NCBI GenBank assembly: GCA_004298335.1
Contig: SCTG01000048.1
Location: 1 to 54,507 of the forward strand
Direction of reading: 5' to 3'
Length of the DNA: 54,507 bases
From: Nitrospirota bacterium
GTDB taxonomy: Bacteria; Nitrospirota; Nitrospiria; Nitrospirales; NS-4
The notes under the pieces were generated by a model, which saw only the letters and a program-made list of their open reading frames with translations, did not search any database and had not been told where the DNA came from. Shown here piece by piece: positions 4,601-52,914 of the stretch; within the stretch, counting starts at the first letter, position 1; each line of letters opens with the position of its first letter. Made by a program: the position numbers and the translations under genes.

Positions 4601-4679
4601 GCGGGTGACGCCGGTCGGGGGCCCACCGCCGCGCGCAGCTTTTCGGAGCACGGCGGGGGAAACCGGTGGCAGGCCCCGC
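4601..4679 (+). repeat. Short, diverged copy of hairpin repeat module B
   Basis: GCGGGTGACGCCGG...CCGGTGGCAGGCCCCGC has nearly the same basal stem as the module B copies at 28235, 43901 and 52769. Confidence 0.6.
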
Positions 4680-4695
4680 AATTTAGGAGGCATGC

Positions 4696-7203
4696 ATGCC
4701 GGTAGATGAACGGTTAACCCAGATCGCCATCGAGGACGAGATGCGCTCGTCCTACCTCGATTACGCGATGAGCGTGATCGTGGGGCGCGCGCTGCCGGAC
4801 GTCCGCGACGGGCTGAAGCCGGTCCACCGCCGGATCCTCTACGGCATGCACGAGATGGGCCTGGTCCACAACCGGGCCTACCGCAAGTCCGCCAAGATCG
4901 TCGGCGAGATCATGGGGAACTACCATCCTCATGGCGACACGGCTATTTACGATACGCTGGTCCGCATGGCGCAGGACTTCAACATGCGCTATTGCCTCGT
5001 GGACGGCCAGGGCAACTTCGGCTCGGTGGACGGGGACCCGCCCGCCGCCATGCGGTACACCGAGGCGCGCCTCACGAAGCTCGCCGAGGAAATGCTGGCG
5101 GACATCGACAAGGAGACCGTTGATTTCCGCCCCAATTACGACGAATCGCGCGTCGAGCCGGTGGTCCTGCCGGCCAAGGTGCCGAACCTCCTGGTCAACG
5201 GCGCCGGCGGCATCGCGGTCGGGTACGCGACGAACATCCCGACCCATAATATTACCGAAGTGGTGGCGGGCCTCATCAGGCTGATCGACAACCCGGCCAC
5301 GACGGTCGATCAGCTCATGGAGGTCATCCCGGGCCCTGACTTTCCCACCGCCGGCTACATCTACGGCACGCAGGGCATCAAGGACGCCTACCACACGGGG
5401 CGCGGGCTGCTGACGCTTCGGGCCAAGGCGAGCATCGAGACCGACGAGCGCACCGAGCGCGACCGCATCATCGTCACGGAGATCCCCTATCAGGTCAACA
5501 AAGCCCGGCTGATCGAGAAGATCGCCGAGCTGATCACGGACAAGCGCATCGAAGGCATTTCGGACCTCCGCGACGAGTCGGACCGGGACGGGATGCGGAT
5601 CGTCATCGAGCTCAAGAAGGGCGAGATTCCGCTCGTGCTGCTCAACAACCTGTACAAGCACACGCCGATGCAGTCCACGTTCGGCGTGATCATGCTGGCG
5701 CTGGTCCACAACCGGCCGGAGGTGCTGACCCTCAAGCAGATCCTCGAGGCCTTCATCGAGCACCGGCGCGAGGTCGTGCTGCGCCGGACGGCGTTCGACC
5801 TGCGCAAGGCCGAAGAGCGGGCCCACATCCTCGAAGGCCTCAAGATCGCGCTGGATAATCTGGACGCCGTGATCGCCCTGATCAAGCGGTCGCGCTCGCC
5901 GGAGGAGGCGCGCAACGGCCTGATGCGGCAGTTCGCCTTGTCGGAGCTCCAGGCCAACGCCATTCTGGACATGAAGCTGCAGCGGCTCACGCAGCTGGAG
6001 CGGGAGAAACTGACGCAGGAGTACGAGGAGATCATCAAGCGCATTGCCTATCTCAAGTCCGTCCTGGGCTCCGAGCCGCTGGTCCGGCAGATCATCAAGG
6101 ACGAGCTCCTGGCCGTCAAGGAAGAGTACAAGGACGAGCGGCGGACGCAGATCGTCCCCGAAGAGGCGGAGATCAACGTCGAGGATTTGATCGCGCAGGA
6201 GGAGGTGGTGGTGACCATCTCCCACACCGGCTACATCAAGCGCAATCCGGTCTCGCTCTACCGGGCCCAGCGCCGCGGCGGCAAGGGCAAGATCGGGATG
6301 GGGATCAAGGAAGAGGACTTCGTCGAGACCCTCTTTACGGCCTCCACGCACGACTATCTCTTGTTTTTCACCGACGCCGGCAAGGTGTACTGGCTGAAAG
6401 TGCACGAGATTCCGGAGGCCGGCCGCGCCGCCAAGGGCAAGGCAATGGTCAACCTGCTGGCGCTCGCGGGCGATGAAAAGGTGACGGCCACCCTGCCCGT
6501 GAAAGAATTTCGCGAGGACCGCTACGTTGTCATGGCCACGCGGATGGGGACCATCAAGAAGACGGAGCTCTCGGCCTACGGGAACCCGCGCCAGGGCGGC
6601 ATCATCGCGCTCACGCTGGATGACGGCGACAAGCTGATCGGGGTGGAAATCACCGACGGCCAGCGGGAGATCCTGCTCGGCACGCGCGACGGGATCGTCA
6701 TCCGTTTCAAGGAAGAGGACGTCCGGCCGATGGGCCGCACGGCTCACGGCGTACGGGGCATCAGCCTGGACGAAGGCAACTATGTGATCGGCATGGAGAC
6801 GATCACGCCCGATTCGACCGCGTCGATCCTCACGGTCACGGAAGGCGGCTATGGGAAGCGCACGCTGGTGGGCGAGTACCGGCTCCAGGGCCGGGCCGGC
6901 CGCGGGATCATTTCCGTGAAAGTGACCGAGAAGAACGGCCCCGCGGTGTCGTTTCATCAGGTCCGTGACGGCGACGAGATCATGGTCATGACGGCCGAGG
7001 GCAAGATCCTGCGCACCAAGGTGGACGACGTGCGCGAGATCGGACGGAACGCGCAGGGCGTCCGGCTGATCGACATGGAGGAGACCGATCGCGTGGTGGG
7101 TGTGGCCAAGCTGGCCGAATCCTTGGGCGAACCCGCCGGCGACGGCGTTGCCGGCGGCAACGGAGACGACGCTGGCCCTCCGGCCCAGGGCAATGGAGGC
7201 TGA
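4696..7203 (+). CDS. gyrA: DNA gyrase subunit A
   Basis: [23 protein letters not shown] catalytic Tyr, GyrA box QRRGGKG. Confidence 0.98.
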
Positions 7204-7699
7204 GCAACCCCAGAAGCCGCTCGATCCCCTCGTCAAGACCGCGTTCACGCTCTGCATCGGACTGATCGTCATCACGGTGGCGGGGATGATCCTGACCGCG
7301 CCGGACCGGTCCATCCCGCCATACAGCGTCATGGCTCAGCACGGTGAGAACGTGACCGTCAACGTCCCGCCCCGCACGACCGATCGTGAGATTGAGGCCC
7401 TGCTGGTCCGTTTTCAGGCAGCCGGCCGCGGGAGCGGGGACGGATTCGCCCACCTTAAGATTAAGCCGACAACGCCCGGCGATCCCGCCGGGCGCTATCG
7501 GCGCCTGACGATCTATGTCTTCGACAATCCCGGCCTGGCGGACGAGCCCTCGTTGCGGGACTACCTCGCCGGCACGGACCCGTTGGCCAGGTCCGGCTTC
7601 GAGCGTGGCGTGCGGGGACTGTATCGGCTCACGGGCGAAACGGAATACGGCGCCGTCGGCGCCAAAGTCCTCTTTCGGGGGAACCGCAGCGGAGGCTAG
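7193..7699 (+). CDS. Hypothetical membrane-anchored protein
   Basis: ATG overlapping the gyrA end; N-terminal hydrophobic helix. Confidence 0.7.
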
Positions 7700-8169
7700 G
7701 GCGCGGATTTCGAGAAGAGCGCTTTCAGGCGCGTTTGGAGGTCAGGATCGGCGACGGCTTGCACCGTCGCGTCGATGGCGGTGCGTGTCTCTACGCTGAG
7801 ATCCTCCTCCGCCTGTTCGGCGGGCGCGGGGCGAGAGGAGGGTCCTGCGCCGGCATCCGGAGAAGGCACGGTCCCGACCCTGAGGACGATATCGGTGAGC
7901 GCCTCGCCGTCCGCCGCGGCGTTGATCTTGGCCAGCAGTTCCGGTTTGAGGAAGAGCAGCTGCTGGAGCCAGACGGAGTTCTCGGCCACCAGGTAGAGCT
8001 TGCGGTGCCGGACGGAGTCCGGCCACGTGTGGCGTGCGACGTGTTCACCGACGATCTCGAGCCAGTGCTGCTGGAGCCTGCATTCCAGCATGTGGATCGC
8101 CATGCCGTGAGTTTTGAGAAACCGGGCGAGGATGTCCGGCAGCGGGTTCAGGCTGGGGCGCTTGGCCAT
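7696..8169 (-). CDS. dciA: DUF721/DciA-family helicase loader
   Basis: W.EIVG..VA.HT.P...L.L.A.NSVW.QQL pattern; located next to gyrA. Confidence 0.8.
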   Translation of the reverse strand: MAKRPSLNPLPDILARFLKTHGMAIHMLECRLQQHWLEIVGEHVARHTWPDSVRHRKLYLVAENSVWLQQLLFLKPELLAKINAAADGEALTDIVLRVGTVPSPDAGAGPSSRPAPAEQAEEDLSVETRTAIDATVQAVADPDLQTRLKALFSKSAP

Positions 8170-8219
8170 GGGCGTATCGTAGTACCTGACCGCGATAGCG
8201 TCAAGACGAAGGAGCCGTC

Positions 8220-8420: not shown

Positions 8421-8430
8421 GATGCCCGTC

Positions 8431-8514
8431 GCGGGGCCGTCTCATCGCTCCTGCGCGCGCGTCACGAATAAGCAGATGCCGCTCGCTTACGGGCGCGGTT
8501 GAGACAGGCCCCGC
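8431..8514 (-). repeat. Hairpin repeat module A, copy 1
   Basis: Core CACGAATAA(G/A)CAGATGCCGCTCGCTTA shared with 28130 and 52665; closing stem GCGGGGCC..GGCCCCGC. Confidence 0.85.
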
Positions 8515-8577
8515 GCCTGTTCCAGCTGCTGACGAAGTGGAAATGGCCGCTAGCTTTGCGATATAGTATGTACGAAA

Positions 8578-8922
8578 GGGGGCGACCGGCTTCGACGGGG
8601 GTCATGACGCCAGGGTGGCATGCCGAGCTCCGGGAACTCGTAAAAGTCCGGAAACAATAACTGCCAACGAACAACTGGCACTCGCTGCTTAATTAAGCGG
8701 TGACGTCTCTCTTCTGACGCCCGCGCGGGGGATGAGGCGACGATTGCGGGCTGGCCCGACGCTGGTGCTCAGCGGCGGCGGGCGAGATGCACTGGGCTAG
8801 CGACTGTTCTAAGCCTGCCGGAGGGCGTGGACGGAAGCGAAACCCCAAATCGCCGGCTATGCATGTAGAAGCCCTTCGCTGACGGTCTTCGGACAGGGGT
8901 TCAACTCCCCTCGCCTCCACCA
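8578..8922 (+). ncRNA. ssrA: tmRNA; tag reading frame ANEQLALAA at 8663-8692
   Basis: 5' GGGGGCGACCGGCTTCGACGGGG; 3' T-arm GGGGTTCAACTCCCC plus CGCCTCCACCA; tag ends in LAA-stop. Confidence 0.96.
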
Positions 8923-8926
8923 TCAT

Positions 8927-25581: not shown

Positions 25582-27017
<1,436 letters not shown>

Positions 27018-27018
<1 letters not shown>

Positions 27019-28112: not shown

Positions 28113-28129
28113 ATAAGGACAGGCCGGTC

Positions 28130-28351
28130 GCGGGGATGCCTCTTCGCTCCCTGCGCGCGCGCCACGAATAAACAGATGCCGCTCGCTTATGGGCGCTGTA
28201 GAGGCATCCCCCACTTCGGCCGTTCGGATTTCTGGCGGGTGGCGCCGGGTTGTCCGGACCGGCGCAGGACTTGAGGCCGGAGCGCAGCTCTGCGGGGCCG
28301 CGCCAGCGCAGGCCGGTCCGAGACGGCCGGACGCCCGGTGACAGGACCCGC
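28130..28351. repeat. Composite hairpin repeat: module A (28130-28214) plus module B (28235-28351)
   Basis: Closely similar to 52665-52884 except in the spacer and the apical part of B. Confidence 0.9.
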
Positions 28352-28365
28352 TCTTTAAAGGAAGA

Positions 28366-30127: not shown

Positions 30128-30186
30128 GGCTTGAGTTCTACACCGGCGCCCTGATCGATGCAAGAGCTTTATGGTACCCTCTTCCC

Positions 30187-31105: not shown

Positions 31106-31153
31106 GGCAGGCGCATTGTACCAGACTCGCGTGATCTGTTAAGGTTTCGCTCC

Positions 31154-33432: not shown

Positions 33433-33436
33433 CGCG

Positions 33437-34417: not shown

Positions 34418-34441
34418 GGTCAGTTCAATCCCTCCGTTGCC

Positions 34442-34807
34442 TCAGCCGCGTGCATCCCAGGGGGCGTCCATGTTCGTGAGGCTCCGCAGGGCCAGGGCCT
34501 CGGACTCGTGGATCGGAAACATGGCGGTGAAGCCGGCGATGTCGAACACCTCCCGGATGTGCGGCTTGAGCGCGCAGAGGGCGATCACGCCCCCGGAGGC
34601 CTTCAGTTTCTTGGCGGCCATCAGCAACACCCGCAAGCCGGCGCTGCTGATGTAATCCAGTCGGGCGAAGTTGACCACCAACTGCTTCGCCCCGCCGGCG
34701 AGCAGGCCCAGCACCTTCTCCTCCATCTGGGGGGAAGTGCCGGAGTCCAGGCGCCCCACGAGTCCGAGCAACACGATCGCGCCTTGCTTATCCTCGATAA
34801 TGTCCAT
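34442..34807 (-). CDS. STAS-domain anti-anti-sigma factor
   Basis: GRLD, LDYISSAGLRVL (phospho-Ser motif), VFDIAGF. Confidence 0.92.
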   Translation of the reverse strand: MDIIEDKQGAIVLLGLVGRLDSGTSPQMEEKVLGLLAGGAKQLVVNFARLDYISSAGLRVLLMAAKKLKASGGVIALCALKPHIREVFDIAGFTAMFPIHESEALALRSLTNMDAPWDARG

Positions 34808-34846
34808 TGCGGCTCCTCACTGCTGTTAGGTTGCACAGGGTTGGTT

Positions 34847-36997: not shown

Positions 36998-37674
36998 CAC
37001 GACACCATCCAGAAGAACACGACCGCCATCCGTTTGGAGCCCGGCTCGTGGTCCCAGCCGAAATAGGCCGTGGCCGAGTGCACGATGTCGGATTTGTAGA
37101 CGAGCAGGCGGTTGAACCGGTTCGGCACTTCGACGTCCTCTTCCCACATCGTCAGATCGGACCCCTCCTCGAAGCCCGCGATTTGGGCGAGGCTTTCGTA
37201 GGGCGGCGGGCAGATGTTGCCGCCGAGCGTCCCATCGGGGAGGCGCAGCCGGTAAAACGAGGTGCCGGAGTGTTTGGTCGGCGGATAGGGATGGAGGTAG
37301 AGCACGCCGGCGTAGTTGCAGAGCGTGCTGGAGTCCACGTGCGGCCGCGCGACGGCGGTGCCCCCGCCCACGATCTGCACGTGGTTGTGCCCGCTCACGC
37401 CGGCGGGCGGCTCGCCCTGCCGGTGGAGGGCCCGGGCGCCGATCTGCGCCTTGACCCACTCTTCGATGATCGTCAGTTCGTCGGGCAGCAGCGCGTCCGG
37501 CGCGCGCATGCCCGGCCAGGCTTCGGCGCGCCAGGGCCACCCCATGATCCAGGCCGGTTTATTGAAGCAGCGTTCCGCCACGTCCAGGGCGTTCGGCAGG
37601 ATGTCGTCCTTGATCCAGTAGTCCTTGCCGGCTTCCGGTTTGCGATAGGGGAGGGTGTCGGGACGAAGAGTCAT
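36997..37674 (-). CDS. Putative 2OG-Fe(II) oxygenase (DUF6445-like)
   Basis: PHVD...VLYL...GTSFY...NRL..Y....HS...R pattern. Confidence 0.7.
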   Translation of the reverse strand: MTLRPDTLPYRKPEAGKDYWIKDDILPNALDVAERCFNKPAWIMGWPWRAEAWPGMRAPDALLPDELTIIEEWVKAQIGARALHRQGEPPAGVSGHNHVQIVGGGTAVARPHVDSSTLCNYAGVLYLHPYPPTKHSGTSFYRLRLPDGTLGGNICPPPYESLAQIAGFEEGSDLTMWEEDVEVPNRFNRLLVYKSDIVHSATAYFGWDHEPGSKRMAVVFFWMVS

Positions 37675-38462
37675 TTCACACCGATCTTCACGGGCTCCGA
37701 GAACATGATGCGCCCGCTTGCTCCGCCGGGGCCCCCGCGGGGCCCGGCCCGTCCATTGGACATGACGGTTCCCAGGGGCTGCCCCTTTTCAGTCCCGTAG
37801 AAGAAGGCCGCCGCGATCGTGTACGTGCCGGGCTCCGGCGGCACCCGCAGCACCCAGGTCGTGCGGGTCTCGTCCACGCGTCCCGCGAGGGCATCGCCCT
37901 GCACCCCGTCGATCATCACGGTCGCGAGCCCCATGTCCGATCCCCGGTACCGCCGTTCGGCCCACTGCGCCTGTGGCTTCCCGCCCGGGCCGTACACCAG
38001 CGCGGGGCCGACGACCTTGAACCCGCTCGACGTGAGCGGCCGGGCCTGGAAGCGCAGCGTGCTGTCCACCAGCGCCACGCCCACGACGGGGCCCGCGCCG
38101 CCCCGCGTGACCACCGTCACGTCGATGCGGCTGTTCCGGCGGGCCTGGGTCGGCGACAGGATCCTGACCGAGGCGTACTTGTCGATCCACTTGACGGCGG
38201 CGATCAGCATGTCGCGGTCCTCGGGGCCGAGGTCTTTGTAAGCCGGGTCCGTCCTGATCCGGTTCACATGCTTGCCGTCGACGGTTTCACCGGCGGCCAG
38301 GTCGGCGGGCAGCTCCCGCAGCTGGTCGGGGCTGGTGGAGGCATGGCAGCTCGCGCAGAACGGCGCCATGTCGGTGACGGCGTGAGACGGCCCGTAGGGG
38401 TCCGCGAGGGCCACGGCGGCCGCGAGGATCGAGAGCGACAGCAGGGGGGCGATGAACCGCAT
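37671..38462 (-). CDS. Exported monoheme c-type cytochrome-domain protein
   Basis: Signal peptide ending ALA; single CASCH motif. Confidence 0.7.
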   Translation of the reverse strand: MRFIAPLLSLSILAAAVALADPYGPSHAVTDMAPFCASCHASTSPDQLRELPADLAAGETVDGKHVNRIRTDPAYKDLGPEDRDMLIAAVKWIDKYASVRILSPTQARRNSRIDVTVVTRGGAGPVVGVALVDSTLRFQARPLTSSGFKVVGPALVYGPGGKPQAQWAERRYRGSDMGLATVMIDGVQGDALAGRVDETRTTWVLRVPPEPGTYTIAAAFFYGTEKGQPLGTVMSNGRAGPRGGPGGASGRIMFSEPVKIGVK

Positions 38463-38518
38463 GGCTGGTCACTGTACCATGAAACATTATGGCGAGTGAA
38501 CCGGGGCGAGAGGCGCCG

Positions 38519-39064
38519 TTACGGAGGCGTGCCCTCCCGGCGCTGCTTGATCAGGTCGGTCGCGTACAGGACGATGAGCGCCCCGACCGCCAGCAGGTAG
38601 GCCCCGCCGAAGGGGATGAAGAACAGGCGTTCGGCCAGTTGGAAGGCGGCAGCCTCACCCAGCGACGGCAGTGTCCAGGCGAGCGTCAGCCAGCCGAACG
38701 GGTAGAGGAGTCCCAGCGACACCCAGAGGCTCAGGGCGGCCCTCGTCCGGGGCGAGAACCCCGTGTTGGCCAGGACCGTCAGGAGGATGATCGTGACCAA
38801 CCCCAGGCCGTGGCTGTGGAGGTGGAAGGTGTGCACGCGGGCCAGCGAACGGTCGGCCACCCGCTCGAGGATCACCTGGTCGATGTCCTCCACGCCCGTG
38901 AGCTGATGGGCGGCGGGGTGCGCCTGCGCCCGCGCGATCGCGTACTGGTGGATCTCCTGGCGATAGCCGCCCTGCAGCGCCCCGGAGAGCTCGCCGAACC
39001 CGAACAGCAGCAGGCAGGCCAGAACGCCCAGGCCCGGCGGGGCCTTGAGAGCGCCGGCGCTCAC
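38519..39064 (-). CDS. His-rich membrane protein of unknown function
   Basis: About four TM segments; HTFHLHSHG. Confidence 0.75.
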   Translation of the reverse strand: MSAGALKAPPGLGVLACLLLFGFGELSGALQGGYRQEIHQYAIARAQAHPAAHQLTGVEDIDQVILERVADRSLARVHTFHLHSHGLGLVTIILLTVLANTGFSPRTRAALSLWVSLGLLYPFGWLTLAWTLPSLGEAAAFQLAERLFFIPFGGAYLLAVGALIVLYATDLIKQRREGTPP

Positions 39065-39681
39065 CCGGGCAGCCCCGGCAGCAGCTCCGCCGCAAAATGG
39101 GACAGCACCGCCTGGCTCAACTGCCGCCGCAACTGCTCGAACTGGGTGGCCGCCTGCTGCCGTACCGCGCCGTCCATGCGGTCCAGGATCTGTTCCATCG
39201 TCTTGACCTGCGCGGGCCGCCTGCGGCCGAAGGTTTCCTCAAAGATGTGCGAGAAGTAGTCGCGGGCCAGGTCCATCACCACCTTGCGGGTGTCGGGCCT
39301 GACGTCCCGGTTCGGGAGCATGGCGGTGAGCTGGTCCAGTTTCTCGAGCATCAGGAGGTAGGTCAACGAATAGATGGCGCTCTTCAGCCGGGCCGCGTCG
39401 CGCGCCGCAATCGCCGCGCCCAGCGACTCGGCCACCGTCGTCCGGTAGGCCTGGTCCAGCTTGGCCGCCGTCTGGGTCAGGCCGAGCAGGCCCTTCGTCT
39501 GCAGCAGCTCTTCGACCGTCCCGATCTGGTAGATCGCCTCGGCGGTCTTGTTCTGCTCCAGCAGGAGCAGCACGCCGTACATGCGGTCCAGCAGGATCGG
39601 GATCGGCTGCCGCATCTCGTGGGCTTCCACCGGCGCCGTCGCGACCCCCACAAAGAACACCGCCATTAAGATCTTCACCAT
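39061..39681 (-). CDS. Exported helical hypothetical protein
   Basis: Signal peptide ending VEA; stop overlaps the next GTG. Confidence 0.7.
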   Translation of the reverse strand: MVKILMAVFFVGVATAPVEAHEMRQPIPILLDRMYGVLLLLEQNKTAEAIYQIGTVEELLQTKGLLGLTQTAAKLDQAYRTTVAESLGAAIAARDAARLKSAIYSLTYLLMLEKLDQLTAMLPNRDVRPDTRKVVMDLARDYFSHIFEETFGRRRPAQVKTMEQILDRMDGAVRQQAATQFEQLRRQLSQAVLSHFAAELLPGLPG

Positions 39682-39691
39682 CTGATCTTTA

Positions 39692-39812
39692 GCGGCCGCG
39701 CGAGGGATGCGCCCCAACTGCGGCGCATGAGGAGCGACGAGGGCCCGTTATAAACGGGTCCGGCGCGCCGAGGTTCACAGCGGAGCACGGGGCGCACCCA
39801 AGCAGGCCGCTC
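39692..39812 (+). repeat. Hairpin repeat module C
   Basis: Reverse complement aligns with 43785-43887 with compensatory stem changes. Confidence 0.8.
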
Positions 39813-39820
39813 CGGTGCCG

Positions 39821-41065
39821 TCACAATTTGCAGGCGCTCTGGTCCCGGCTTCCCGCGACGGCGTCGCCCGGCACCGTGGCCAGGATCTGATAGTGGCCGA
39901 GCCCCAGTTCCTTGCCGTAGGCCTGCCCGACGAGCACGTCCTGCACGTGCTGGTGGTCCCAGGCGCGGAAGTAGGAGCGGCCCTCCTTGCAGCCGTCGAA
40001 CTCGTGCCCTTCGAGCGCCTTGATCACCGCCGCCGTGTCGGTCGTGCCGGTGCGGCGCACCGCCTCCAGGATTTGCGTCATCGCGGCGTAGCCCAGGTAG
40101 CAGCGCGACGTGGGCGTGTGGTTGTACTTGTCGATCACGCCCTGGATGAACCGCTTCGAGCTGTCCGTGTTGACCTTCGGGTCCCAGATCAGGCCCCACA
40201 CGCCGGCGTTGTTCGCGTACCCGAGCGGCCGGCCGATCTGCTCGCCGCCGATCATGCCGCCCACGCCGATCTTCTCCTTGGCCAGCTCCAGCTTCGCGTA
40301 GCCCTTCAGCGCGTTGACCAGGTCCCACCCGTAGAGATTCAGAATGATGGCGCCGGGCTTGGCCGCCTTGGCCTCGGTGAGGACGGCGGTGAAGTCGGTC
40401 GTCCCGAAGGGCGTCGTCGCGGCGCCCACCACCTCGCCGCCGTTGGCCTTCAGCGCGTCGGTCATGGCCTGCAGCTCCGACTTGCCGTCCACGGTGTCCG
40501 CCGTGATCATGTACCAGCGGTTCCCGGAGGCCTTGATGATGTGCGGCGCGACGGCCTGCGCCATCATGCGGGCGTTGGGCATGAAGACGAACGTGTGGGA
40601 GCTGCATTGCGACCCCGTGAGCTCCATGATGTGGGGGCAGGTGGCCATGAACAGTTTGTTCTCCTGCTTGGCCACCTCGCCGACGGCGAGGGCCACGTCG
40701 CCGTTGAAGGTGCCCATCAGGAAGTCCACGCGGTCCTCCTTGATCAGCTTGGTCGCCGCCTTGATCGCCGTCTGGACGTTCGAGGCGTCGTCGGCCTCGA
40801 CAATGGCGACCTGGCGGCCCAGCACCCCGCCGCGCTTGTTGTACATGTCCAGCGCCACCGTCGCGCCGTGCACGTCGTGGATCGAGGACGTCTTGTAGGG
40901 GCTGGACAGGGGGTCGATGATGCCGACCTTGAGCGGCTCGGCCGCATGAGCCGACCGCGTCCCCCTGGTGAGGCCGAGTATCTGATCGGCCAGGTCGCCG
41001 AAGGCCACCGCGCCTCCGGCCGCCGCCGACAGTTGAAGAAAGCGTCTGCGCGAGATCGTGCTCAT
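39821..41065 (-). CDS. Tat-exported LivK-like (branched-chain type) substrate-binding protein
   Basis: SRRRFL; LKVG..DPLS, N..GGVLGR, DDAS, PFGTTDF, FRAWDHQ. Confidence 0.85.
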   Translation of the reverse strand: MSTISRRRFLQLSAAAGGAVAFGDLADQILGLTRGTRSAHAAEPLKVGIIDPLSSPYKTSSIHDVHGATVALDMYNKRGGVLGRQVAIVEADDASNVQTAIKAATKLIKEDRVDFLMGTFNGDVALAVGEVAKQENKLFMATCPHIMELTGSQCSSHTFVFMPNARMMAQAVAPHIIKASGNRWYMITADTVDGKSELQAMTDALKANGGEVVGAATTPFGTTDFTAVLTEAKAAKPGAIILNLYGWDLVNALKGYAKLELAKEKIGVGGMIGGEQIGRPLGYANNAGVWGLIWDPKVNTDSSKRFIQGVIDKYNHTPTSRCYLGYAAMTQILEAVRRTGTTDTAAVIKALEGHEFDGCKEGRSYFRAWDHQHVQDVLVGQAYGKELGLGHYQILATVPGDAVAGSRDQSACKL

Positions 41066-41176
41066 GGGGAGTCCTCCTTCATGGTCAAAGCCGCCAGATT
41101 ATATAGCACCCGGAGTCTTTTTGCTCCTGACCTTCTGGATCCCCCGCGGCGCCCCGACTCCACGGGGACAATAGGT

Positions 41177-41710
41177 TCACGCACACACCGAAGCTATCTC
41201 TGTGGGCAGCGGTCCGGCCCGCACCATCCGGTGGATATACCGCGAACAGTTGGGAAACGCTTGTTCCACTGTGACCTTGATGACCCGTTCCGCCCCTTGG
41301 AATTGTGCCGTCACCTTCGCATCCTCGATGATTTCTGCCCGCCCATTGACGCGCAAACGCCGTTGCGTTTCGAAATCGATGAAGAGCATCCCGACGTTCG
41401 GATTCACGCGGAGGTTGCCAAGGCTCATGTAGGAACCGTTGCCGTTGTAATCGGGGAACAGAAGGGTCCTGCCATCCATGACCTTCACAAATCCTGGGCT
41501 GCCTCCGCGATAGTTGCAGTCCAGGCGCCCTTCGTCGTCAGAGGTAGCCATAAAGAACATGAACTGTGCCTCGATGAACGCCTTAAAGCTCTCGCTAAGC
41601 ACGTCATGGATGTGCGCGATGAGCCGCCGCCCGGCGAGCTTGGTGCCGCTTCGCGTCTGCATCTCGATCTCGCCGGGATGCGGTTCATTGTGCGATCGTC
41701 TCGGTATCAT
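41177..41710 (-). CDS. Pyridoxamine 5'-phosphate oxidase-family FMN-binding protein
   Basis: FF.AT, RGG.PGFV, PDY.GNG..SLGN, GMLFIDF, NC.RYI; GGAGG upstream. Confidence 0.88.
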   Translation of the reverse strand: MIPRRSHNEPHPGEIEMQTRSGTKLAGRRLIAHIHDVLSESFKAFIEAQFMFFMATSDDEGRLDCNYRGGSPGFVKVMDGRTLLFPDYNGNGSYMSLGNLRVNPNVGMLFIDFETQRRLRVNGRAEIIEDAKVTAQFQGAERVIKVTVEQAFPNCSRYIHRMVRAGPLPTEIASVCA

Positions 41711-41720
41711 GTCCGCCTCC

Positions 41721-42167
41721 CTAGTCAGGTAGATAGCAGGACGGGGCATAGCTCACGGGCGCCTCGCGTCCGTCTCCCCCATTCGGGCTGAAGAGTTCCA
41801 CCCGGATCCCGTCCGGGTCGTAGAAGTACAGCTCTGCCTCATGTGCCCCATCCTGCAGTGGGACGATCCGGTTGTAATGGATGCGGACTCCCTTCTTCCT
41901 GAGAATCTGCTCGGCTTGCGTCAGTGCATCGACACTTCCGACGGACAGGGCAAAATGGTGGAGACCCGCGTTCGCCTTGGTATAGTGGTGCGCGCTCCCT
42001 TGCCAAAGCGTAACGAAGTTCTTGCCGTCGGCTAAGAACACATAGCCGAGCTTCGGATCGGCGCCGACTTCCTTCCATCCGAAGAGCTCCTGATAAAATG
42101 TCTTGGATCGTTCAATATTCGTCACGGTTAATCCGATGTGATGCACACCCGCTGCTTGAATAGTCAT
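41721..42167 (-). CDS. VOC/glyoxalase family protein
   Basis: HHIGLTV...FY..LFG, GLHHFA, YFYDPDGIRVE. Confidence 0.9.
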   Translation of the reverse strand: MTIQAAGVHHIGLTVTNIERSKTFYQELFGWKEVGADPKLGYVFLADGKNFVTLWQGSAHHYTKANAGLHHFALSVGSVDALTQAEQILRKKGVRIHYNRIVPLQDGAHEAELYFYDPDGIRVELFSPNGGDGREAPVSYAPSCYLPD

Positions 42168-42210
42168 CGCTTCCTCCTTATGGAATCTTGTTTGAGTGGC
42201 GCATAATAGC

Positions 42211-42239
42211 TAACCATCAAAATATAATTTTGACGGTTA
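42211..42239. promoter_or_regulatory. Palindromic operator candidate
   Basis: TAACCATCAAAA-N5-TTTTGACGGTTA (11 of 12 positions symmetric) between divergent genes. Confidence 0.7.
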
Positions 42240-42306
42240 TAGCACCGTTAGGCTAACCTGTCAAGCAAGATTTTGATGGTGTGCCATTATGGGAGCGGGA
42301 TGATCG

Positions 42307-42936
42307 GTGGCGATGCGAGAAGCGAAACCGGACAAGAACTTCCTGTTTGTCGGCAACCAGACCTGCCTGGATTTCATCAATACCCAGATGATCCAGCAGG
42401 GCAGACTGGTGGATCTGCTGGAGGACTTTTCCGACCTGATGGCATGGATGGTCCAGGCCCGTATCCTTGACGCGGGGGATGCGAAGGAGGCGATCCGCAA
42501 GTGGGGCGGTCGGCGAGAGGGCCTTCGGACGTTCGCACACGCGCGGGAGTTGCGTGCGACCCTGCGGGAAATGGCCGGGAGGATCGCGGCGGGGCAGGCG
42601 GTGCCGCAGTCGGCGATCGAGGCCATCAACGGGCTGCTTCGCCACCGCCTTGGCTATGCCCAGCTGACCAAGACGTCCGGCGGCTTTGAGCGGCGGTTCC
42701 ACGTGGAGGCCGGAGAGGCGATCCACCTGCTTGCACCGATCGCGGAGTCCGCAAGCGATCTGCTGGCCCACTGCGATCGCGCTCTCATCAAAAAGTGCAA
42801 GAACAGGGCATGCATACTCTTCTTTTATGACACGACCAAAAACCACGCCCGGCACTGGTGCAGCATGAGCATCTGCGGGAACCGCATGAAAGTGGCCGAG
42901 CACTATCGGCGCAAGCGACGGACGAAAGGGCGCTAA
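42307..42936 (+). CDS. ABATE/CGNR zinc-finger regulator
   Basis: LDFINT; C...C..FFYD.TKN..R.WCSM..CGNR.K. Confidence 0.92.
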   Translation: MAMREAKPDKNFLFVGNQTCLDFINTQMIQQGRLVDLLEDFSDLMAWMVQARILDAGDAKEAIRKWGGRREGLRTFAHARELRATLREMAGRIAAGQAVPQSAIEAINGLLRHRLGYAQLTKTSGGFERRFHVEAGEAIHLLAPIAESASDLLAHCDRALIKKCKNRACILFFYDTTKNHARHWCSMSICGNRMKVAEHYRRKRRTKGR

Positions 42937-42991
42937 GCCGGCGGAAAGAGCCTGTGGTATAGTGCGGTCGGAGATCGGTCGGAGAGCGCGC

Positions 42992-43771
42992 ATGCAGGAT
43001 TTCAGAGCAGTGGCGGTGGCGGCGGCGCAGCAGGCGGGGAAGCTCATCGCGGACGCCTATCGCACCGAGTTTCGCGTGGACTACAAGCAGGGCACGACGA
43101 CGAACCTGGTCACCGAGGTGGACCGCCGGTCCGAAGCCGCGATTGTCGAGGCGCTCGGCAAGGCCTTCCCCGACCACCGGATTCTCGCCGAAGAGGGCGG
43201 GGAGGGTTCACAGAACGAGTCTCCGTACAAATGGATCGTGGACCCGCTGGACGGGACGACGAACTTCGCGCACGGGTTCCCGGCGTTCTGCGTGTCGATC
43301 GGCCTGGAAGTGGAGGGGCGCGTGGTCCTGGGGGTGGTGTACGACCCGCTCCGCCAGGAACTCTTCGAGGCCGAGGCGGGCAAGGGCGCGTTCCTCAACG
43401 GCGAGCGGCTTCGCGTCTCGCGGGCGACCGCGCTCGACAAAGCACTGCTGGTGACCGGCTTCGCGTACGACCAGGAAGGCCGCCGGAGCAACCTGGATCA
43501 TTTCTCGCGTTTCGTGTTACGGGCGCAGGGCATCCGGCGCACGGGGTCCGCCGCCATCGATCTGTGCTACGTGGCATCAGGCCGGATCGACGGGTTCTGG
43601 GAGCTGAAGCTCTTTCCCTGGGACGTGGCGGCGGGGAGTCTGATCGTGGCGGAAGCCGGGGGGCGGGTCACGGATTTCACGGGCAATGCGTTTTCGATCT
43701 ACACCGATAAAATTCTCGCCTCGAACGGTCTCGTGCACGACGCGATGATCGCCGTCCTCGCGGGAAAATAA
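42992..43771 (+). CDS. suhB: Inositol monophosphatase family protein
   Basis: LVTEVD, AEE, DPLDGTTNF, WDVAAG. Confidence 0.9.
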   Translation: MQDFRAVAVAAAQQAGKLIADAYRTEFRVDYKQGTTTNLVTEVDRRSEAAIVEALGKAFPDHRILAEEGGEGSQNESPYKWIVDPLDGTTNFAHGFPAFCVSIGLEVEGRVVLGVVYDPLRQELFEAEAGKGAFLNGERLRVSRATALDKALLVTGFAYDQEGRRSNLDHFSRFVLRAQGIRRTGSAAIDLCYVASGRIDGFWELKLFPWDVAAGSLIVAEAGGRVTDFTGNAFSIYTDKILASNGLVHDAMIAVLAGK

Positions 43772-43784
43772 TCTCGATCCCGAA

Positions 43785-44015
43785 GAGCGGCCTGCTCGGG
43801 TGCGGCTCGTGCTCCCAGGTGAAGCACCGCGCGGTTCGGAAACCGCTCGGTATGGCCGCAGTGAGCCGCATCCCTTCGCGCGGCCGCACAGAAATTTCCT
43901 GCGGGTGGCGCCGGGCTGTCCGGACCGGCGCAGGGCTTGAGGCCGCAGCGCGGTCTGCGTGCCTGGTAGCGCGAGGCCGTCCCGAGACGGCCGGATACCC
44001 GGCGACAGGACCCGC
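43785..44015. repeat. Composite hairpin repeat: module C (43785-43887) plus module B (43901-44015)
   Basis: B matches 28235 and 52769; C is the inverted relative of 39692-39812. Confidence 0.88.
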
Positions 44016-44029
44016 TCTTTGCAATGGAT

Positions 44030-44860
44030 TTACCCGAAGGGGTTGTGGTCGCGCTCCTCGCGCACGGTGGTGGAGGGGCCGTGGCCGGGGAACAAAATGA
44101 AATTCTCGGGCAGCGTCAGCACGCGCGTCCGGACGCTCTTCAGGTGGGTGGGATACAGCGTCGACGGATTGGCCCGCCCGATCGAGCCCGCAAACAGCGT
44201 ATCCCCGACGAAGCAGTGCGTGTCCGTCCTGTAGCAGACCCCGCCCGGCGTATGGCCCGGCGTCGTCATGAACCTGACCTCCCGCCCGCCGACCCGGAGC
44301 GCCTCGCCGTCGCCGACGAACTTCCGCAACGAGACCGGCGGCTGCCAGCCGAGGATGCCCCAGTCGCCTTCGCCGATGTACACCGGCACCGGGTGGCGCG
44401 CCAGGATCGCGTCCAGCCCGCCGGCGTGGTCGGCATGTCCGTGCGTCAGGCAGACGGCGGTCAGGGTCAAATGCTCCCGCTCGATGGCGCGCAGCATGGC
44501 GTCCGGGTTGTAGCCGGTGTCGATCATGACGGCGTCGCGCGTGGCGGAATCGTACAAAAGGTAGCCCTTGACCTCGTAGCCGCCGATGTTGCCGCGGACG
44601 AGGATCACGTCCTGGGCCGCCTGGTGGGTCGGGTGGGCCGGCTCCCAGTGGTCGCAGGCGAGGGCCGCCAGCTTGGGCCCGTCGAGCGCGAGCGCGGCGG
44701 CCAGCGCCAGGACTTCCTCGCGCGCGGGGACGCGCCGGCCGGATTCCAGCTCGCGCAGGGCCGCTGCGTCGAGCCCCGACGCTGCGCGCACCTGGTCGAG
44801 GCTCAGGCCTTGACCGGTGCGGGCTTTCTTGATGATGTCCGAGAAGTCGTCTTCCAGCAT
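44030..44860 (-). CDS. XRE-like HTH fused to glyoxalase II-type MBL hydrolase
   Basis: IIKKAR..QGLS....ELESG; THGHADH, PGHTPG, GDTLF, PGHG. Confidence 0.85.
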   Translation of the reverse strand: MLEDDFSDIIKKARTGQGLSLDQVRAASGLDAAALRELESGRRVPAREEVLALAAALALDGPKLAALACDHWEPAHPTHQAAQDVILVRGNIGGYEVKGYLLYDSATRDAVMIDTGYNPDAMLRAIEREHLTLTAVCLTHGHADHAGGLDAILARHPVPVYIGEGDWGILGWQPPVSLRKFVGDGEALRVGGREVRFMTTPGHTPGGVCYRTDTHCFVGDTLFAGSIGRANPSTLYPTHLKSVRTRVLTLPENFILFPGHGPSTTVREERDHNPFG

Positions 44861-44922
44861 GGTCGCGCCACCCGCATCATAGCCAATGGTGGAGGGCCGG
44901 GCAACCGTGGTAAACTACCGCC

Positions 44923-45198
44923 ATGGCACGATCATCTTCGCGATACGCGATCTGGGCGCTGGCCCTTGCGCTGCTCTCTCCGCCTGCCGCCGGCTTTGTG
45001 ACGCCGTCCTCGGCGGAGGAGCAGAAGACGTCGTCCAAGGAGAAGCTCGATGCGGCCAAGAAGGATCTGGACAAAGGGGTCCAGGGAGCAAGCAAACCCA
45101 TCCAGAAAGTGATGGAGCCGATCGAGAAGGCCATCTCGGAAGGCGCCGGCAAAGCGGCGAGCACTGTCAAGAAAGCGGTCACGCCGGACAAGAAATAG
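44923..45198 (+). CDS. Small exported Lys-rich protein
   Basis: Signal peptide-like N-terminus; -10 box immediately upstream. Confidence 0.7.
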   Translation: MARSSSRYAIWALALALLSPPAAGFVTPSSAEEQKTSSKEKLDAAKKDLDKGVQGASKPIQKVMEPIEKAISEGAGKAASTVKKAVTPDKK

Positions 45199-45211
45199 CG
45201 CGCGCGCATCC

Positions 45212-45400
45212 ATGACGACCGACGACGCGCGGCTCCGCATCCAATCGGCGATCGAGCAGTTCGGCCCGAAGGCCGCGCCCATGATCGACCTCGTGATCGG
45301 CGAAACACGGTCGGCCCTCGGGAACGAGGCGGCGAACGGACTGATCGACGAGTTCAACCTGGAACTCCAATACAACATCTTCCCGGTCGAGTTCGAGTGA
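45212..45400 (+). CDS. Small acidic hypothetical protein
   Basis: Fills the gap in a co-directional run; host-like codon usage. Confidence 0.65.
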   Translation: MTTDDARLRIQSAIEQFGPKAAPMIDLVIGETRSALGNEAANGLIDEFNLELQYNIFPVEFE

Positions 45401-45418
45401 CTCGCCGCCGCTGACGCC

Positions 45419-46483
45419 ATGCGCGAGCGACGCTGGGAGGCCCGAGCAGCGCTGACGTTCCCGGACGTGCTGGCCCTGGGGGAGCGGCTCGCCTCGCTGG
45501 GCTTGGCGCCCGCGACGCCCGGGAAAGAGATCATCTGCTACATCGAGGAATGGCCGGTCCCCGCGCCGCAGGCGATTGACCGGCTGGATCCATGGACGAC
45601 CGAGGACGTGACGCTGGTCCACATTCACGAGGGCTGGCGCGGCGATTTCTTTCTCCTGTCCGGCGGCTATCACACCGTCTATCAGCGCCACCAGTCCGTC
45701 GGGACCTACTGTTCGATCGGCCACCCCTGGACGATTCCGGAGACGCTCCGGACGCTGCGCCCGGGCGCGATGTTCTGGCTGGGGTTCCGCCACGCGCATT
45801 CGTTCATCCGCGTGCGCCTGCATACGGCCGAGGTTGTGACGCCGCGCGAGACGCGCGCCGACGACCGGCGCGAGCTGTGGGTGGACGAGCGCCGCCGGGG
45901 CTTTGCCTCCGCCATCAAGGTGCTGAACCTGCCGGTCGAGCCCGACGTGGAGGGCGGGAGCCTGGTGCTGCGGCCGTTCGTCCGGACGGTCCCGTTCTTC
46001 TGCTCGTGGCCGGACGCCTTCGGGCCCTGCCAGTTCGAGTTCAATTCCCCCGACGCCTTCGAGTTTCTCGTGCCGGCGAGCCGGCTGGCCGCCACGCACG
46101 GCCGGGAGCCCGCGACGATCCGCGCCTATCTGACCGGATTCTCCGAACCGGCGCTGAAGGAGTTCGAGGCCGTTCAGCCGGACGCGCGATATGCCTACCG
46201 GTGCTCGGCGCACTGCCAGCTGGGCGAGCTGCCCGACGTCCTGCGCGCCATCGCGCCGGCCGGCCGGCTCTACGCGACGCTCTGCGAATTCCAGACGCAG
46301 GGCCTCCTGCCGGACGGCGCGGACGCGTGGGCGATCGTGGGCGTGATGGGGGTGGAAGGCGGGGGCTTTCAGGTCGAAGTGCGGTTGAACCGCGCGCCCC
46401 TTCCGGAGAACGAGATGGCGGAGTGGCTGCAAGCGCTCCTCGGCATGCCCGCGGCGTACGCGCCGCTTCCGCCGTTCGTGTGA
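45419..46483 (+). CDS. Hypothetical protein
   Basis: 354 aa; host-like codon usage; no family recognised. Confidence 0.75.
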   Translation: MRERRWEARAALTFPDVLALGERLASLGLAPATPGKEIICYIEEWPVPAPQAIDRLDPWTTEDVTLVHIHEGWRGDFFLLSGGYHTVYQRHQSVGTYCSIGHPWTIPETLRTLRPGAMFWLGFRHAHSFIRVRLHTAEVVTPRETRADDRRELWVDERRRGFASAIKVLNLPVEPDVEGGSLVLRPFVRTVPFFCSWPDAFGPCQFEFNSPDAFEFLVPASRLAATHGREPATIRAYLTGFSEPALKEFEAVQPDARYAYRCSAHCQLGELPDVLRAIAPAGRLYATLCEFQTQGLLPDGADAWAIVGVMGVEGGGFQVEVRLNRAPLPENEMAEWLQALLGMPAAYAPLPPFV

Positions 46484-46494
46484 GGCGCGCCGAT

Positions 46495-47604
46495 ATGCCG
46501 CTGGCCTCCATGATCCGCACCGCTCTCAGCAAGCCGTTCCTGCCGGCGGTCTTTTTCTTCTCCGGCGTGACCTTCGACAGTCTCACGCTCGCCCGCATCG
46601 ACAGTCTGCTGGATAACCTGGTCCTGCTCCTGTACCTGAGCCTGCTGGGCGCGTTGATCATCCTGACGGCGCGCCTGGATACGCGGATGGGCGGGGGGGC
46701 GCCGCCGGCCGGCCTCGGTGGTGTCCCGGGCCTGGTCGCACGCGCGCAGCCGTACTATCCGCACGCCATCCAGTTTCTGCTGGGCGGACTCTACAGCGCC
46801 TACGCGATCTTCTATTTGCAGAGCGCGTCGATGACCGCGACGGCGGTCTTCTTCGGCGTCCTCGTCGCGTTGCTGGTGGGCAACGAGTTCCTGCACGACC
46901 GCCTCTCCAACCTGCGCCTGCTGGTCAGCCTGTACGCGCTGGTCGCCCTGAGTTTTTTCACGTTCTTCCTGCCGGCGCTGATCGGGTTGATGAACACATG
47001 GGTCTTCCTGCTCGGCGCGGGATTGAGCGCGGCCGTGACGCTGAAAGTGGTGGAGCTGATCTATCGGGGACGTCCGACCGCGTCGCGATGGGAACCCGTC
47101 CTCTCCGTGTTGCCGGCGATCGGGCTGATCGTCGTCATGGTGGGGTTCTATTTCCTCAACTGGATCCCGCCGGTGCCGCTCTCGATGAAGTTCGGCGGGG
47201 TGTACCGGCAGATCGCAAAGACCGACGGGGCCTATAGCCTGACCTTTGAAGAGGGCGACTGGTACCAGTTCTGGAAACGCTCGGACGATCCCTTTCGGGG
47301 AACCGGCCCCGTGCATTGTTTTACCGCCGTGTTCGCGCCCGTCAATTTACACACGACGGTCTACCATCGCTGGCAGTACCGGCCCGCCGCCGGCCGGAAC
47401 TTCTCGACGACGGACCGAATCGCCATGGCGATTTCGGGCGGGCGCGAAGGAGGCTATCGCGGCTACACGATCAAGCAAGGCGTGACGCCGGGCGACTGGC
47501 GCGTGGACGCGGAGACGGCCGAAGGGCGCATCATCGGGCGGGTCAGCTTTCGGGTCGAGGAACCGGACGGCGAGGCCCGGGCGCTCGACACCATCACGTA
47601 CTGA
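46495..47604 (+). CDS. DUF2914-family membrane protein
   Basis: Multiple TMs, WIPPVPL, FTAVFAP, GGREGGYRG, GDWRV. Confidence 0.82.
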   Translation: MPLASMIRTALSKPFLPAVFFFSGVTFDSLTLARIDSLLDNLVLLLYLSLLGALIILTARLDTRMGGGAPPAGLGGVPGLVARAQPYYPHAIQFLLGGLYSAYAIFYLQSASMTATAVFFGVLVALLVGNEFLHDRLSNLRLLVSLYALVALSFFTFFLPALIGLMNTWVFLLGAGLSAAVTLKVVELIYRGRPTASRWEPVLSVLPAIGLIVVMVGFYFLNWIPPVPLSMKFGGVYRQIAKTDGAYSLTFEEGDWYQFWKRSDDPFRGTGPVHCFTAVFAPVNLHTTVYHRWQYRPAAGRNFSTTDRIAMAISGGREGGYRGYTIKQGVTPGDWRVDAETAEGRIIGRVSFRVEEPDGEARALDTITY

Positions 47605-51611: not shown

Positions 51612-52252
51612 CAGGCGAACAGCCCGATGAGGTCTTCCGGCTGCTCGATGAACCAGTCCGGGCCGCAGGCGGCCATCTTCTCGCGGTTGCCCATGCCGTA
51701 GCCGACGGCGCAGACCTTGAGCCCCGCGTTGTGGCCGCCGTTGATGTCGTTCGTGCTGTCGCCGATGAGGACCGCCCGGTCCCGCTCGACCTTCAACTCC
51801 GCCAGGATCTTCAGGAGCATGCCGGGCTCCGGCTTGAGGCCGTACCCGTTGTCCCCGCCGACGACGTACGCGAAGTGGTGGGCGCCGAGGCCGTCCAGGA
51901 TGCGCGTCGTGTACTCCAGCGACTTGTTCGTGGCGACGGCCTTGTGCTTGCGGGCGAAGTGCGCCAGGACCCGGTCGATGCCGGGGTAGAACCGCGTGCG
52001 GTCGAGGCAGTGGGCGAGGTAGTGGCCGCGAAAGACCCGCAGGGCCTCCTCGTAGCGCGACTGGTTCTCCTCGCCGACGGCCAGCCGGAGCAGGCGCTTG
52101 ATGCCGTCGCCGACGAAGCCGAAGATCTCCTCCTCCCCGCGCACGGGCAGGCCCAGCTCGGCCAGCGTGAGGTTGACCGCCGTGGCGATGTCCCATTTGG
52201 ACTCGATCAGCGTGCCGTCGAGGTCGAAGATGAGCAGATCGATTTTGTGCAT
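51611..52252 (-). CDS. HAD-IA phosphatase (phosphoglycolate phosphatase-like)
   Basis: FDLDGTL, ATNK, KP.P, IGDS..D. Confidence 0.88.
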   Translation of the reverse strand: MHKIDLLIFDLDGTLIESKWDIATAVNLTLAELGLPVRGEEEIFGFVGDGIKRLLRLAVGEENQSRYEEALRVFRGHYLAHCLDRTRFYPGIDRVLAHFARKHKAVATNKSLEYTTRILDGLGAHHFAYVVGGDNGYGLKPEPGMLLKILAELKVERDRAVLIGDSTNDINGGHNAGLKVCAVGYGMGNREKMAACGPDWFIEQPEDLIGLFA

Positions 52253-52270
52253 GGGGCGGATTATAGCAGA

Positions 52271-52627
52271 TTAAAGTTGTTCGATCAGGAGCCCGGCGAT
52301 GGCGGCCAGGCCTCCGGCGACGGCGATGGCGTAGCCGATGCCGCCGAGCACGAACCAGAGCCGGATGCGGCGGTGCTCCTCGGGCGTGAGGCCGGCATGG
52401 TGGCGCGTCGGATGGATCCACCACTTCGGAGGAAGGTGACCGCGCCGGATCAGGATGCGGCGCAGGACGACGTGGTACCAGAAGCCGGTCGGCACGCCTT
52501 CCACCAGCCCCACCACCAGCATGACCAGCCCGATGTTGTGAAACACGTGCGGCGTGACGATCGTGATCATATAGCCCAGCAGGCCGATCCCGACCAGCGC
52601 CGCGAGCAGGAGGCTGATTTCAAGCAT
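52271..52627 (-). CDS. Hypothetical membrane protein
   Basis: Three hydrophobic segments. Confidence 0.7.
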   Translation of the reverse strand: MLEISLLLAALVGIGLLGYMITIVTPHVFHNIGLVMLVVGLVEGVPTGFWYHVVLRRILIRRGHLPPKWWIHPTRHHAGLTPEEHRRIRLWFVLGGIGYAIAVAGGLAAIAGLLIEQL

Positions 52628-52657
52628 GCGTCAATTCTGCCGTTAAGTTAAGAGCTT

Positions 52658-52914
52658 GCCTGTCGCGGGGCTGCCTCTTCGCTCCCTGCGCGCGCGCCAC
52701 GAATAAACAGATGCCGCTCGCTTATGGGCGCGGTTGAGGCAGTCCCCGCTCCAGCCTTCGGAAATCTTGCGGGTGGCGCCGGGTTGTCCGGACCGGCGCA
52801 GGACTTGAGGCCGGAGCCAGAGTTCCGGGGCAGCCGAAGCGCAGGCCGGTCCGAGACGGCCGGACGCCCGGCGACAGGACCCGCTCCGAGCGAAGAGGCA
52901 GCCCCGTGACGGGC
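52658..52914. repeat. Composite hairpin repeat A (52665-52749) plus B (52769-52884), bounded by 27-bp inverted repeats
   Basis: 52658-52684 matches the reverse complement of 52888-52914 at 25 of 27 positions. Confidence 0.88.

Follow-up and report, generated by a model that had tools for sequence, protein, structure and literature searches.

To our knowledge, how most dispersed palindromic repeats of bacteria, such as REP, RPE, ERIC and BOX, are spread is unknown, and each of these families is thought to belong to a narrow lineage; REP sequences in particular are lineage-specific. RPE have been described by Di Nocera (2013, PMC3733652) as palindromic repeats with no known transposase, found also in frame in housekeeping genes including DNA-repair helicases, and the same article reports CGTC-tagged REPs without an associated transposase, again also inside genes. 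A further kind of hairpin, with hundreds of copies, flanking non-palindromic tags and cleavage specific to single-stranded DNA (ssDNA) by the Ssn GIY-YIG enzyme, is reported in PMC11893778. Here we describe hairpin modules, named A, B, Bs (a short form of B) and C, which occur alone or as AB and CB composites in a stretch of 54,507 nt (hereafter the window) that is contig C155 of a Nitrospirota metagenome-assembled genome (MAG; G000) of 2.66 Mb, with 250 contigs and 63% G+C. B and Bs make up a single superfamily. Its hallmark is a basal foot, asymmetric and conserved, of the form GGGTGRCRCCG...GGYGRCAGGACCC, which encloses a hairpin of variable sequence with covarying pairs. Its reach is far beyond the Nitrospirales lineage, a point that the first-pass annotation, made from the letters of the window, had not seen. 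The modules are probably non-autonomous invasive palindromic DNA elements, gained and lost at gene boundaries on a species-level time scale.

B and Bs share the ends GCGGGTG[GA]CGCCG... and ...CGG[CT]G[AG]CAGGACCCGC, and the two ends are set apart from each other by a conserved indel of 3 nt and by a purine pair that covaries. When the ends were paired across the MAG, 27 elements with the foot were obtained, ranging from 75 to 186 nt and falling into length classes of 75/76, 84, 101, 107-108, 110-114, 132 and 186 nt. Like REP/REPIN-RAYT and BIME sequences, these are GC-rich intergenic hairpins that closely follow stop codons, form modular composites of fixed order and orientation and persist vertically with local turnover. 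In contrast with REPs, they are three to four times as long, have no RAYT partner and show the same ends in distant phyla; unlike those of REPINs, their ends are not simple inverted copies of each other, and the roughly 27 hairpins of the MAG are long.

Within the order, a strict form of the foot pattern was found in all 20 genomes of the window's family (19 with 3-20 matches each and one with 1), in 10 of 88 of a second family, in 0 of 87 of a third and in 0 of 5 of a fourth, and the reversed pattern, used as a control, gave 0 matches in every family. Across phyla, with each species represented by a single genome, a search for GGGTGRCRCCG-(50-93 nt)-GGYGRCAGGACCC found at least 120 loci in public genomes, with about 11 phylum-level labels among the matches listed. 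These include Acidobacteriota (Vicinamibacterales, Thermoanaerobaculia and Aminicenantes), Actinomycetota (Solirubrobacterales, Thermoleophilia, Acidimicrobiia and Microthrixaceae), Krumholzibacteriota, Latescibacteria, Omnitrophota, Patescibacteria (including Daviesbacteria), Nitrospirota, Rokubacteria, Gammaproteobacteria, "Deltaproteobacteria" and Chloroflexia; a few matches in coding DNA look chance-like (e.g. L090 and L142). Viral contigs gave 0 matches to the foot pattern. The distribution is patchy across many phyla, and horizontal spread may have contributed to it. The superfamily has also expanded in bursts: strict copies number 2, 2, 25 and 5 on complete chromosomes of related Solirubrobacterales (by BLAST the low-count genomes have more, at about 6 to 14 places) and 20 on a Latescibacteria chromosome. 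Where there are 25, they are almost identical to one another, apart from a few compensatory variants.

The first-pass annotation recognised no named family, and a gathering-threshold scan of the whole window against Rfam 15 agrees with it, giving a tmRNA only. Permissive scans gave nothing relevant with E up to 10 at two module loci or up to 0.01 at 16 cross-phylum loci. Full-text literature searches, which covered articles and not their supplements, where REP consensus lists may be held, found no description of the B/Bs family. This variant therefore appears to be undescribed in Rfam 15 and the searched literature, although its kind, the selfish palindromes of the REP/RPE/MITE type (MITE, miniature inverted-repeat transposable element), is known.

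Every member of the superfamily forms one long hairpin, in some cases with branches, and the foot closes its variable body. The foot consists of two helices, P1 (GGGU:ACCC) and P2 (CRCCG:CGGYG), separated by a 2 x 5 internal loop with G-R on the 5' side and R-C-A-G-G on the 3' side; this loop could also be drawn as a G:C pair and an R.R pair beside a bulge of three bases, AGG. P1 is closed in the folds of 108 of the 121 cross-phylum matches listed. A consensus structure was built from 38 diverse copies, L130 among them having been entered in the wrong orientation, and it comprises 14 pairs. Compensatory double changes are seen at seven, including the two outermost pairs and four P2 pairs that the search pattern left unfixed. 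Paired cells amount to 92.1% against 80.2% in shuffles, and the covariation score of 0.338 compares with 0.126 in shuffled alignments (reached in 0 of 500) and with 0.05-0.09 when partners were slid, so the hairpin covaries above the level of shuffles, which was one of the checks proposed at the outset.

Two features of the foot indicate which strand folds. At a P2 pair that the search left free, the listed matches have G:C 84 times, G:T 27, A:T 9 and A:C once; since every G:T formed by the top strand corresponds to A:C in the bottom strand, this 27:1 asymmetry means that the top strand must be the folding one. The loop purines also covary, with G..A in 95 matches, A..G in 22, and A..A and G..G in 2 each. 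Wobble asymmetry and purine-purine covariation together point to an active form that is single-stranded and strand-specific. The top strand folds better in 100 of the 121 matches, an excess partly owed to the fixed ends. Inside the element, the motif GAG[CGT]A[CTG], on which the matches were not selected, is present in 59 of the 121, where shuffles give 10.3 +/- 2.9, and across phyla the inner motifs take the forms GCGCAG/GCGGAG ... GAGCAC/GAGGAC.

Evidence for gain and loss comes from four sites that were compared in six genomes of the same genus (G001-G006), and the presence or absence of modules at orthologous positions was confirmed. The Bs element (4599..4685, plus strand) lies between gyrB and gyrA; its core, 4603-4677, reads GGGTGAC...GGCAGGCCCC and is enclosed by an outer stem, AAGC/GCAATT, with TA on both flanks. 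The gyrB-gyrA spacer is empty in G002, G003 and G004, where the stop codon overlaps the Shine-Dalgarno sequence, and in G001, G005 and G006 it holds an unrelated AT-rich palindrome (GTTATTCGTTAAACG...CGTATAACGATTAAC; L015, L018 and L016). The empty site, GTGTA/GGAGG, is not palindromic, and the outer stem therefore came in with the insert, possibly together with a duplication of TA. At 52628-52929, which holds an AB composite in the window, G003 has a 0-nt TAA-ATG junction, and G001, G004, G005 and G006 have differing A-like and B-like hairpins. The site of the solo C at 39690 is empty in G004 and carries a 110-nt B-type element in G005. At 43783 the CB composite is found only in G000 and G001; the stop codons overlap in G005, A-like hairpins occupy the site in G002-G004, and G006 has small unrelated hairpins. 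DNA contigs of two sequencing runs, X1 and X3, the latter from an independent groundwater study, were also aligned to the window; these contigs may belong to related species and not to the same population. In X3 contigs, 52627 is joined to 52930 by TTAG only, and 39649 to 39820 is bridged by 30 other letters. One X1 contig has TTCTCCT in place of the 40 nt that adjoin B on the right (52888-52927).

How such elements are moved may be considered in terms of the foot. The foot of the top strand, as single-stranded nucleic acid and most likely as ssDNA, would be a recognition site that is read by an enzyme acting in trans; this enzyme, none of those usual for hairpin transposons, would copy or move the element. 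The self-complementary outer stem would be made or carried at insertion, for example, speculatively, by fold-back priming on a single-stranded intermediate. We tentatively propose that the B/Bs foot marks a pan-bacterial class of strand-specific hairpins, with about 11 phylum labels, which could proliferate with no known transposase, reverse transcriptase or Ssn-type nuclease; its bulged helix (GGGUGR / RCAGGACCC, with the purine pair exchanging G.A for A.G) may dock an as yet unrecognised single-strand enzyme, and the outer stems may be made at insertion, as by fold-back synthesis. We regard this as one possibility rather than the expected outcome. If true, it would mean a new mechanism of mobility or of genome maintenance.

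Profiles of Y2_Tnp, DDE_3, TnpB, RVT_1 and IS110 were searched in G000, G203, G205, G006 and G017. Y2_Tnp and TnpB occur only in G000 among these five genomes, on contigs other than those of the modules. RVT_1 has four matches in G000 (C160, C26, C177 and C212), one of them within a 1472-aa open frame. With MITEs such as Correia/NEMIS, ERIC, RUP and BOX, the modules have in common a size of 100-150 nt, a hairpin made of the whole element, inverted ends, modular variants and intergenic insertion polymorphism; in contrast with MITEs, no parent insertion sequence (IS) with the same ends was found for them, they show no consistent target-site duplication, and DDE_3, the IS630-type family, was found in 0 of the five genomes. 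In G000, no two foot ends at a distance of 0.5-4 kb made a convincing pair, but this MAG is fragmented and a parent IS could be unassembled. In G203, inverted pairs of elements enclose lepA and the genes of an Rrf2 regulator and of a helicase, none of them a transposase, and the inverted pair at L076 encloses nothing. No transposase was found among 84 open reading frames (ORFs) that flank superfamily loci.

Several observations weigh against enzyme-driven movement of a foot-bearing element. No tested enzyme family is common to G203 and G205, both complete and with 20-25 copies: Y2_Tnp, DDE_3, TnpB and RVT_1 were found in neither, and an IS110-type enzyme is present in G203 and not in G205. A small GIY-YIG gene is present in G205, not in G203, and is never beside an element. 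None of the 5 complete carrier genomes searched, the 25-copy and 20-copy ones among them, has Y1_Tnp (PF01797). A TA duplication would fit a single filled/empty pair, and the other copies have no consistent direct repeat. The flanks of 20 copies in G203 differ from locus to locus, but for about 12-18 nt beyond the core the two sides of a copy are complementary to each other, apart from a semi-conserved zone of mismatch (left, CTC/TC; right, GCCGGAG); ordinary cut-and-paste does not account for such flanks. Known ssDNA transposons of the IS200/IS605 group have a near-absolute replication-strand bias, and the replichore orientations of 14:5 in G205 and 14:11 in G203, counted on the assumption that the origin is at dnaA, are far from that and show no strong bias. 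In addition, the carriers are mostly MAGs; conservation of the foot is not measurable on the cross-phylum matches, since these were picked by the foot pattern; and conservation of foot and inner motifs across phyla could equally mean a function at the level of the host.

Such a host function would be expected if B/Bs were a structured RNA, a hairpin between cistrons or at 3' ends that a conserved RNA-binding protein or RNase would bind or cleave, with effects on the stability, processing or termination of mRNA; copying of the hairpin between sites would then be incidental. The strong covariation, the bulged foot with its purine-purine covariation, the 27:1 tolerance of G-U over A-C and the inner motifs conserved across phyla would all suit an RNA, as would the position of elements 2-31 nt past stop codons and within highly expressed operons (such as gyrBA, nuo, atp and ribosomal-protein genes). 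However, elements that lie between co-directional neighbours are sense to them in 13 cases and antisense in 12 by heuristic ORF calls, and 4:4 where Pfam supports the genes on both sides; the flanking genes of superfamily loci are unrelated housekeeping genes. Copies are also found in frame in G203, a Solirubrobacterales genome, and not in the window: its Lhr-type helicase gene has two, one in each orientation, in a 433-aa open frame, and the orthologues in G201, G202 and G204 are without those two and carry other inserts or none. Of the first-pass proposal of a dispersed non-coding hairpin repeat family or structured RNA, the repeat family stands and the RNA reading is weakened by the equal sense and antisense orientation together with the in-frame intragenic copies. 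It also accords poorly with the empty sites of sister species, with a copy number that ranges from 2 to 25 among related genomes, with the absence of an Rfam match and with a simple consensus scan that called no intrinsic terminator at the modules in 27000-46900. We consider a host-serving RNA unlikely.

The helicase copies resemble RPE and the intragenic REPs (PMC3733652), which are likewise palindromes of about 100 nt, between genes and in frame, with no known transposase. Intergenic copies together with in-frame copies absent from orthologues, the feature by which RPE are recognised, are found in G203. The sequences are unrelated to RPE, and the elements described here are found in free-living bacteria of many phyla and are defined by the foot instead of by similarity of the whole element. 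In the four Solirubrobacterales genomes compared (L158, L163-L165), the Lhr-type helicase has two variable loops with in-frame palindromic inserts of at least two families, one B-type and the other encoding GSPEQQRGGSGDPSP-like peptides; in one of the genomes loop 2 is free of inserts.

A second alternative is that the hairpins are recognition sites of a single-strand-specific DNA enzyme, belonging to the host or selfish, that does not transpose them, comparable to NTS/SRM repeats and the Ssn GIY-YIG nucleases that cut them and so modulate transformation or recombination, and that they would be spread by recombination or transformation. Strand-specific wobble with asymmetric flanks is a property of SRM repeats too, and the hairpins of PMC11893778 are many-copy, tagged and cleaved as ssDNA; CGTC-tagged REPs (PMC3733652) offer an intragenic example without transposase. 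The Ssn-related motifs (NTS/dRS3) resemble the B/Bs elements in being dispersed hairpins with oriented non-palindromic flanks, widespread across phyla and without a transposase, and they act as ssDNA, as the elements described here may do. In contrast, those motifs are about 28-30 nt long (PMC11893778) with a simple stem, whereas the elements have 75-115 nt and long covarying stems, and a CGTC tag occurs only in their GAC subfamily, on the other side of the hairpin. A gene of the ssnA type flanked by repeats would be expected, and no ssnA-like gene flanked by elements was found in the carriers searched, nor any in G203, whose only GIY-YIG match is an ORF of about 625 aa taken to be UvrC. Small GIY-YIG genes are inconsistent among carriers: that of G205 is unflanked by elements, and that of G000 is on an AT-rich contig without modules. 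We judge this explanation improbable. The short contig in question, C248, has a small GIY-YIG ORF and an IS110-type transposase at 37-246 and 966-1325, and may be foreign DNA or a binning error.

The MAG has a single Y1_Tnp gene, a 217-aa ORF at C46:8240-8893 (L013 1409-2134). It is bracketed by a perfect 22-nt inverted repeat, AAAAGGGGACATTCTACTTTTT, of which those two are the only copies in the genome, and there is no module on the contig; it is a TIRYT-type element unrelated to A, B and C. Thus, although long hairpins with conserved ends, intergenic position and tens of copies, in a genome with one Y1_Tnp gene, would suggest classical REPINs moved by a RAYT (the first-pass annotation had spoken of a REP/REPIN/BIME-like non-autonomous element), this reading is contradicted by the private repeat of that gene, by its lack of linkage to modules and by carriers free of Y1, and is very hard to sustain.

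In the window itself, all nine copies of A, B, short B and C that had been claimed are present, and each folds into a long irregular hairpin as described, with RNA minimum free energies of -43 to -73.5 kcal/mol. Against shuffles, A, B and C score z = -2.6 to -5.4 on whichever strand folds better, and Bs is weaker (-1.0 / -2.1); an ungapped inverted-repeat scan of the window misses the bulged modules. Module A is found solo at 8429..8520, 57 nt upstream of the tmRNA gene, and as the left half of the two AB composites at 28128..28222 and 52663..52757. B is the right half of all three composites, on the plus strand, at 28233..28355 (a member of the foot superfamily, with a 113-nt core at 28237-28349), 43899..44020 (core 43903-44013) and 52767..52888 (core 52771-52882). 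C occurs solo at 39690..39812 on the plus strand, flanked by two genes of the minus strand, a hypothetical one and one for a periplasmic binding protein, and a C-type module at 43783..43895, minus strand and inverted relative to the former, is the left half of the CB composite. To the right of the last B, at 52890..52906 on the minus strand, is an inverted and perfect 17-nt copy of the 5' arm of A (52666-52682).

The A copies are mutually 84-91% identical over 8450-8517, 28150-28217 and 52685-52752; the three B copies are 72-95% identical, in two blocks; Bs (4600-4682) and B are alike at their ends only; and the two C modules share 49 nt at 82%, in inverted orientation. Counted by nhmmer, the MAG has 9 copies of A, 6 of B and 11 of Bs. 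The strand asymmetry that had been read from the letters holds for B, whose plus strand folds better by 7-10 kcal/mol. For A it is ambiguous, two copies being slightly better on the minus strand and one on the plus strand, and the C module at 43783 has no preference (-60.5 vs -61.5).

The common layout claimed for the three composites is real, but its two AB examples do not count separately. The loci at 28128 and 52663 are 90% identical across 224/226 nt, spacer included, and are therefore copies of one 226-nt AB unit and not independent juxtapositions. AB composites occur also on C35 and C43 of the MAG and on contig C109 of G006, which makes AB a repeated two-hairpin unit, and CB occurs at 43783 and in G001, where the C copies adjoining B are 94-95% identical to the solo C at 39690. 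A and C do act as alternative partners of B, as had been proposed, both recurring on its left. Other arrangements in the MAG are an A copy nested within a B-type frame (C128), a chimera with a C-type base and an A-type apex (C43) and a Bs copy abutting a lone B-type 5' end (C68). By BLAST, A is limited to the genus; its end pattern has 5 matches in G000 and a single, chance-like one in 300 other Nitrospirota genomes, one of the same family among them. The ends of A, GCGGGGCTGCC...GGCAGTCCCCGC, bear on both sides a likeness to the 3' end of B. A and C are genus-restricted hairpin partners of B, probably younger than B, which travel as AB and CB, nest and also occur solo. In BIME and BOX mosaics, too, distinct modules stand in fixed order and orientation at many loci, a resemblance that is descriptive only. 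A small palindrome, ACCCGTTGCA...GCAACGGGT, is one more module that nests: it forms the apex of one A copy (G000 C227:43860-43975) and brackets a B copy in G001 (L198, orthologous to 43783-44020 of the window).

The neighbours of the modules are diverse. The solo A lies between a small ORF and the tmRNA gene (8578-8922, plus strand; standard one-piece form, 187.6 bits in Rfam); upstream of it, on the strand opposite to the tmRNA, is a DciA-family gene (7699-8169, minus strand). The AB composite at 28128 lies between a methyltransferase gene stop and a promoter-like site, both on the minus strand. This site, directly left of A, is a near-consensus sigma-70-like promoter (28112-28084, minus strand; TTGACA-17-TATAGT, 11/12) that faces the ORF at 27482-28021 (minus strand). 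The CB composite, the sole convergent locus among the composites, is located between convergent genes of an inositol monophosphatase and a helix-turn-helix-metallo-beta-lactamase protein. The AB composite at 52663 lies within an operon of the minus strand, with a cupin gene on one side and a small gene on the other, and cross-species alignment places a minus-strand gene start at 52627. CTCTTT follows 3 of 6 B copies. Outside the modules, a divergent intergenic region at 42202-42291 holds a 22-nt inverted repeat, 86% complementary (CATAATAGCTAACCATCAAAAT / ATTTTGATGGTGTGCCATTATG), a possible operator.

The B/Bs signature, made of an asymmetric foot, strand-specific wobble and a covarying purine pair, can be searched for in other genomes. 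The family recurs in uncultured bacteria of many phyla, expands in bursts, tolerates translation and occurs in complete genomes without the enzyme families tested, and the question of what moves such hairpins becomes directly testable. In practice, these elements break short-read assemblies and cause false ORF extensions in these MAGs. Beyond a local repeat family, the window presents a community of hairpin modules that colonise gene boundaries.

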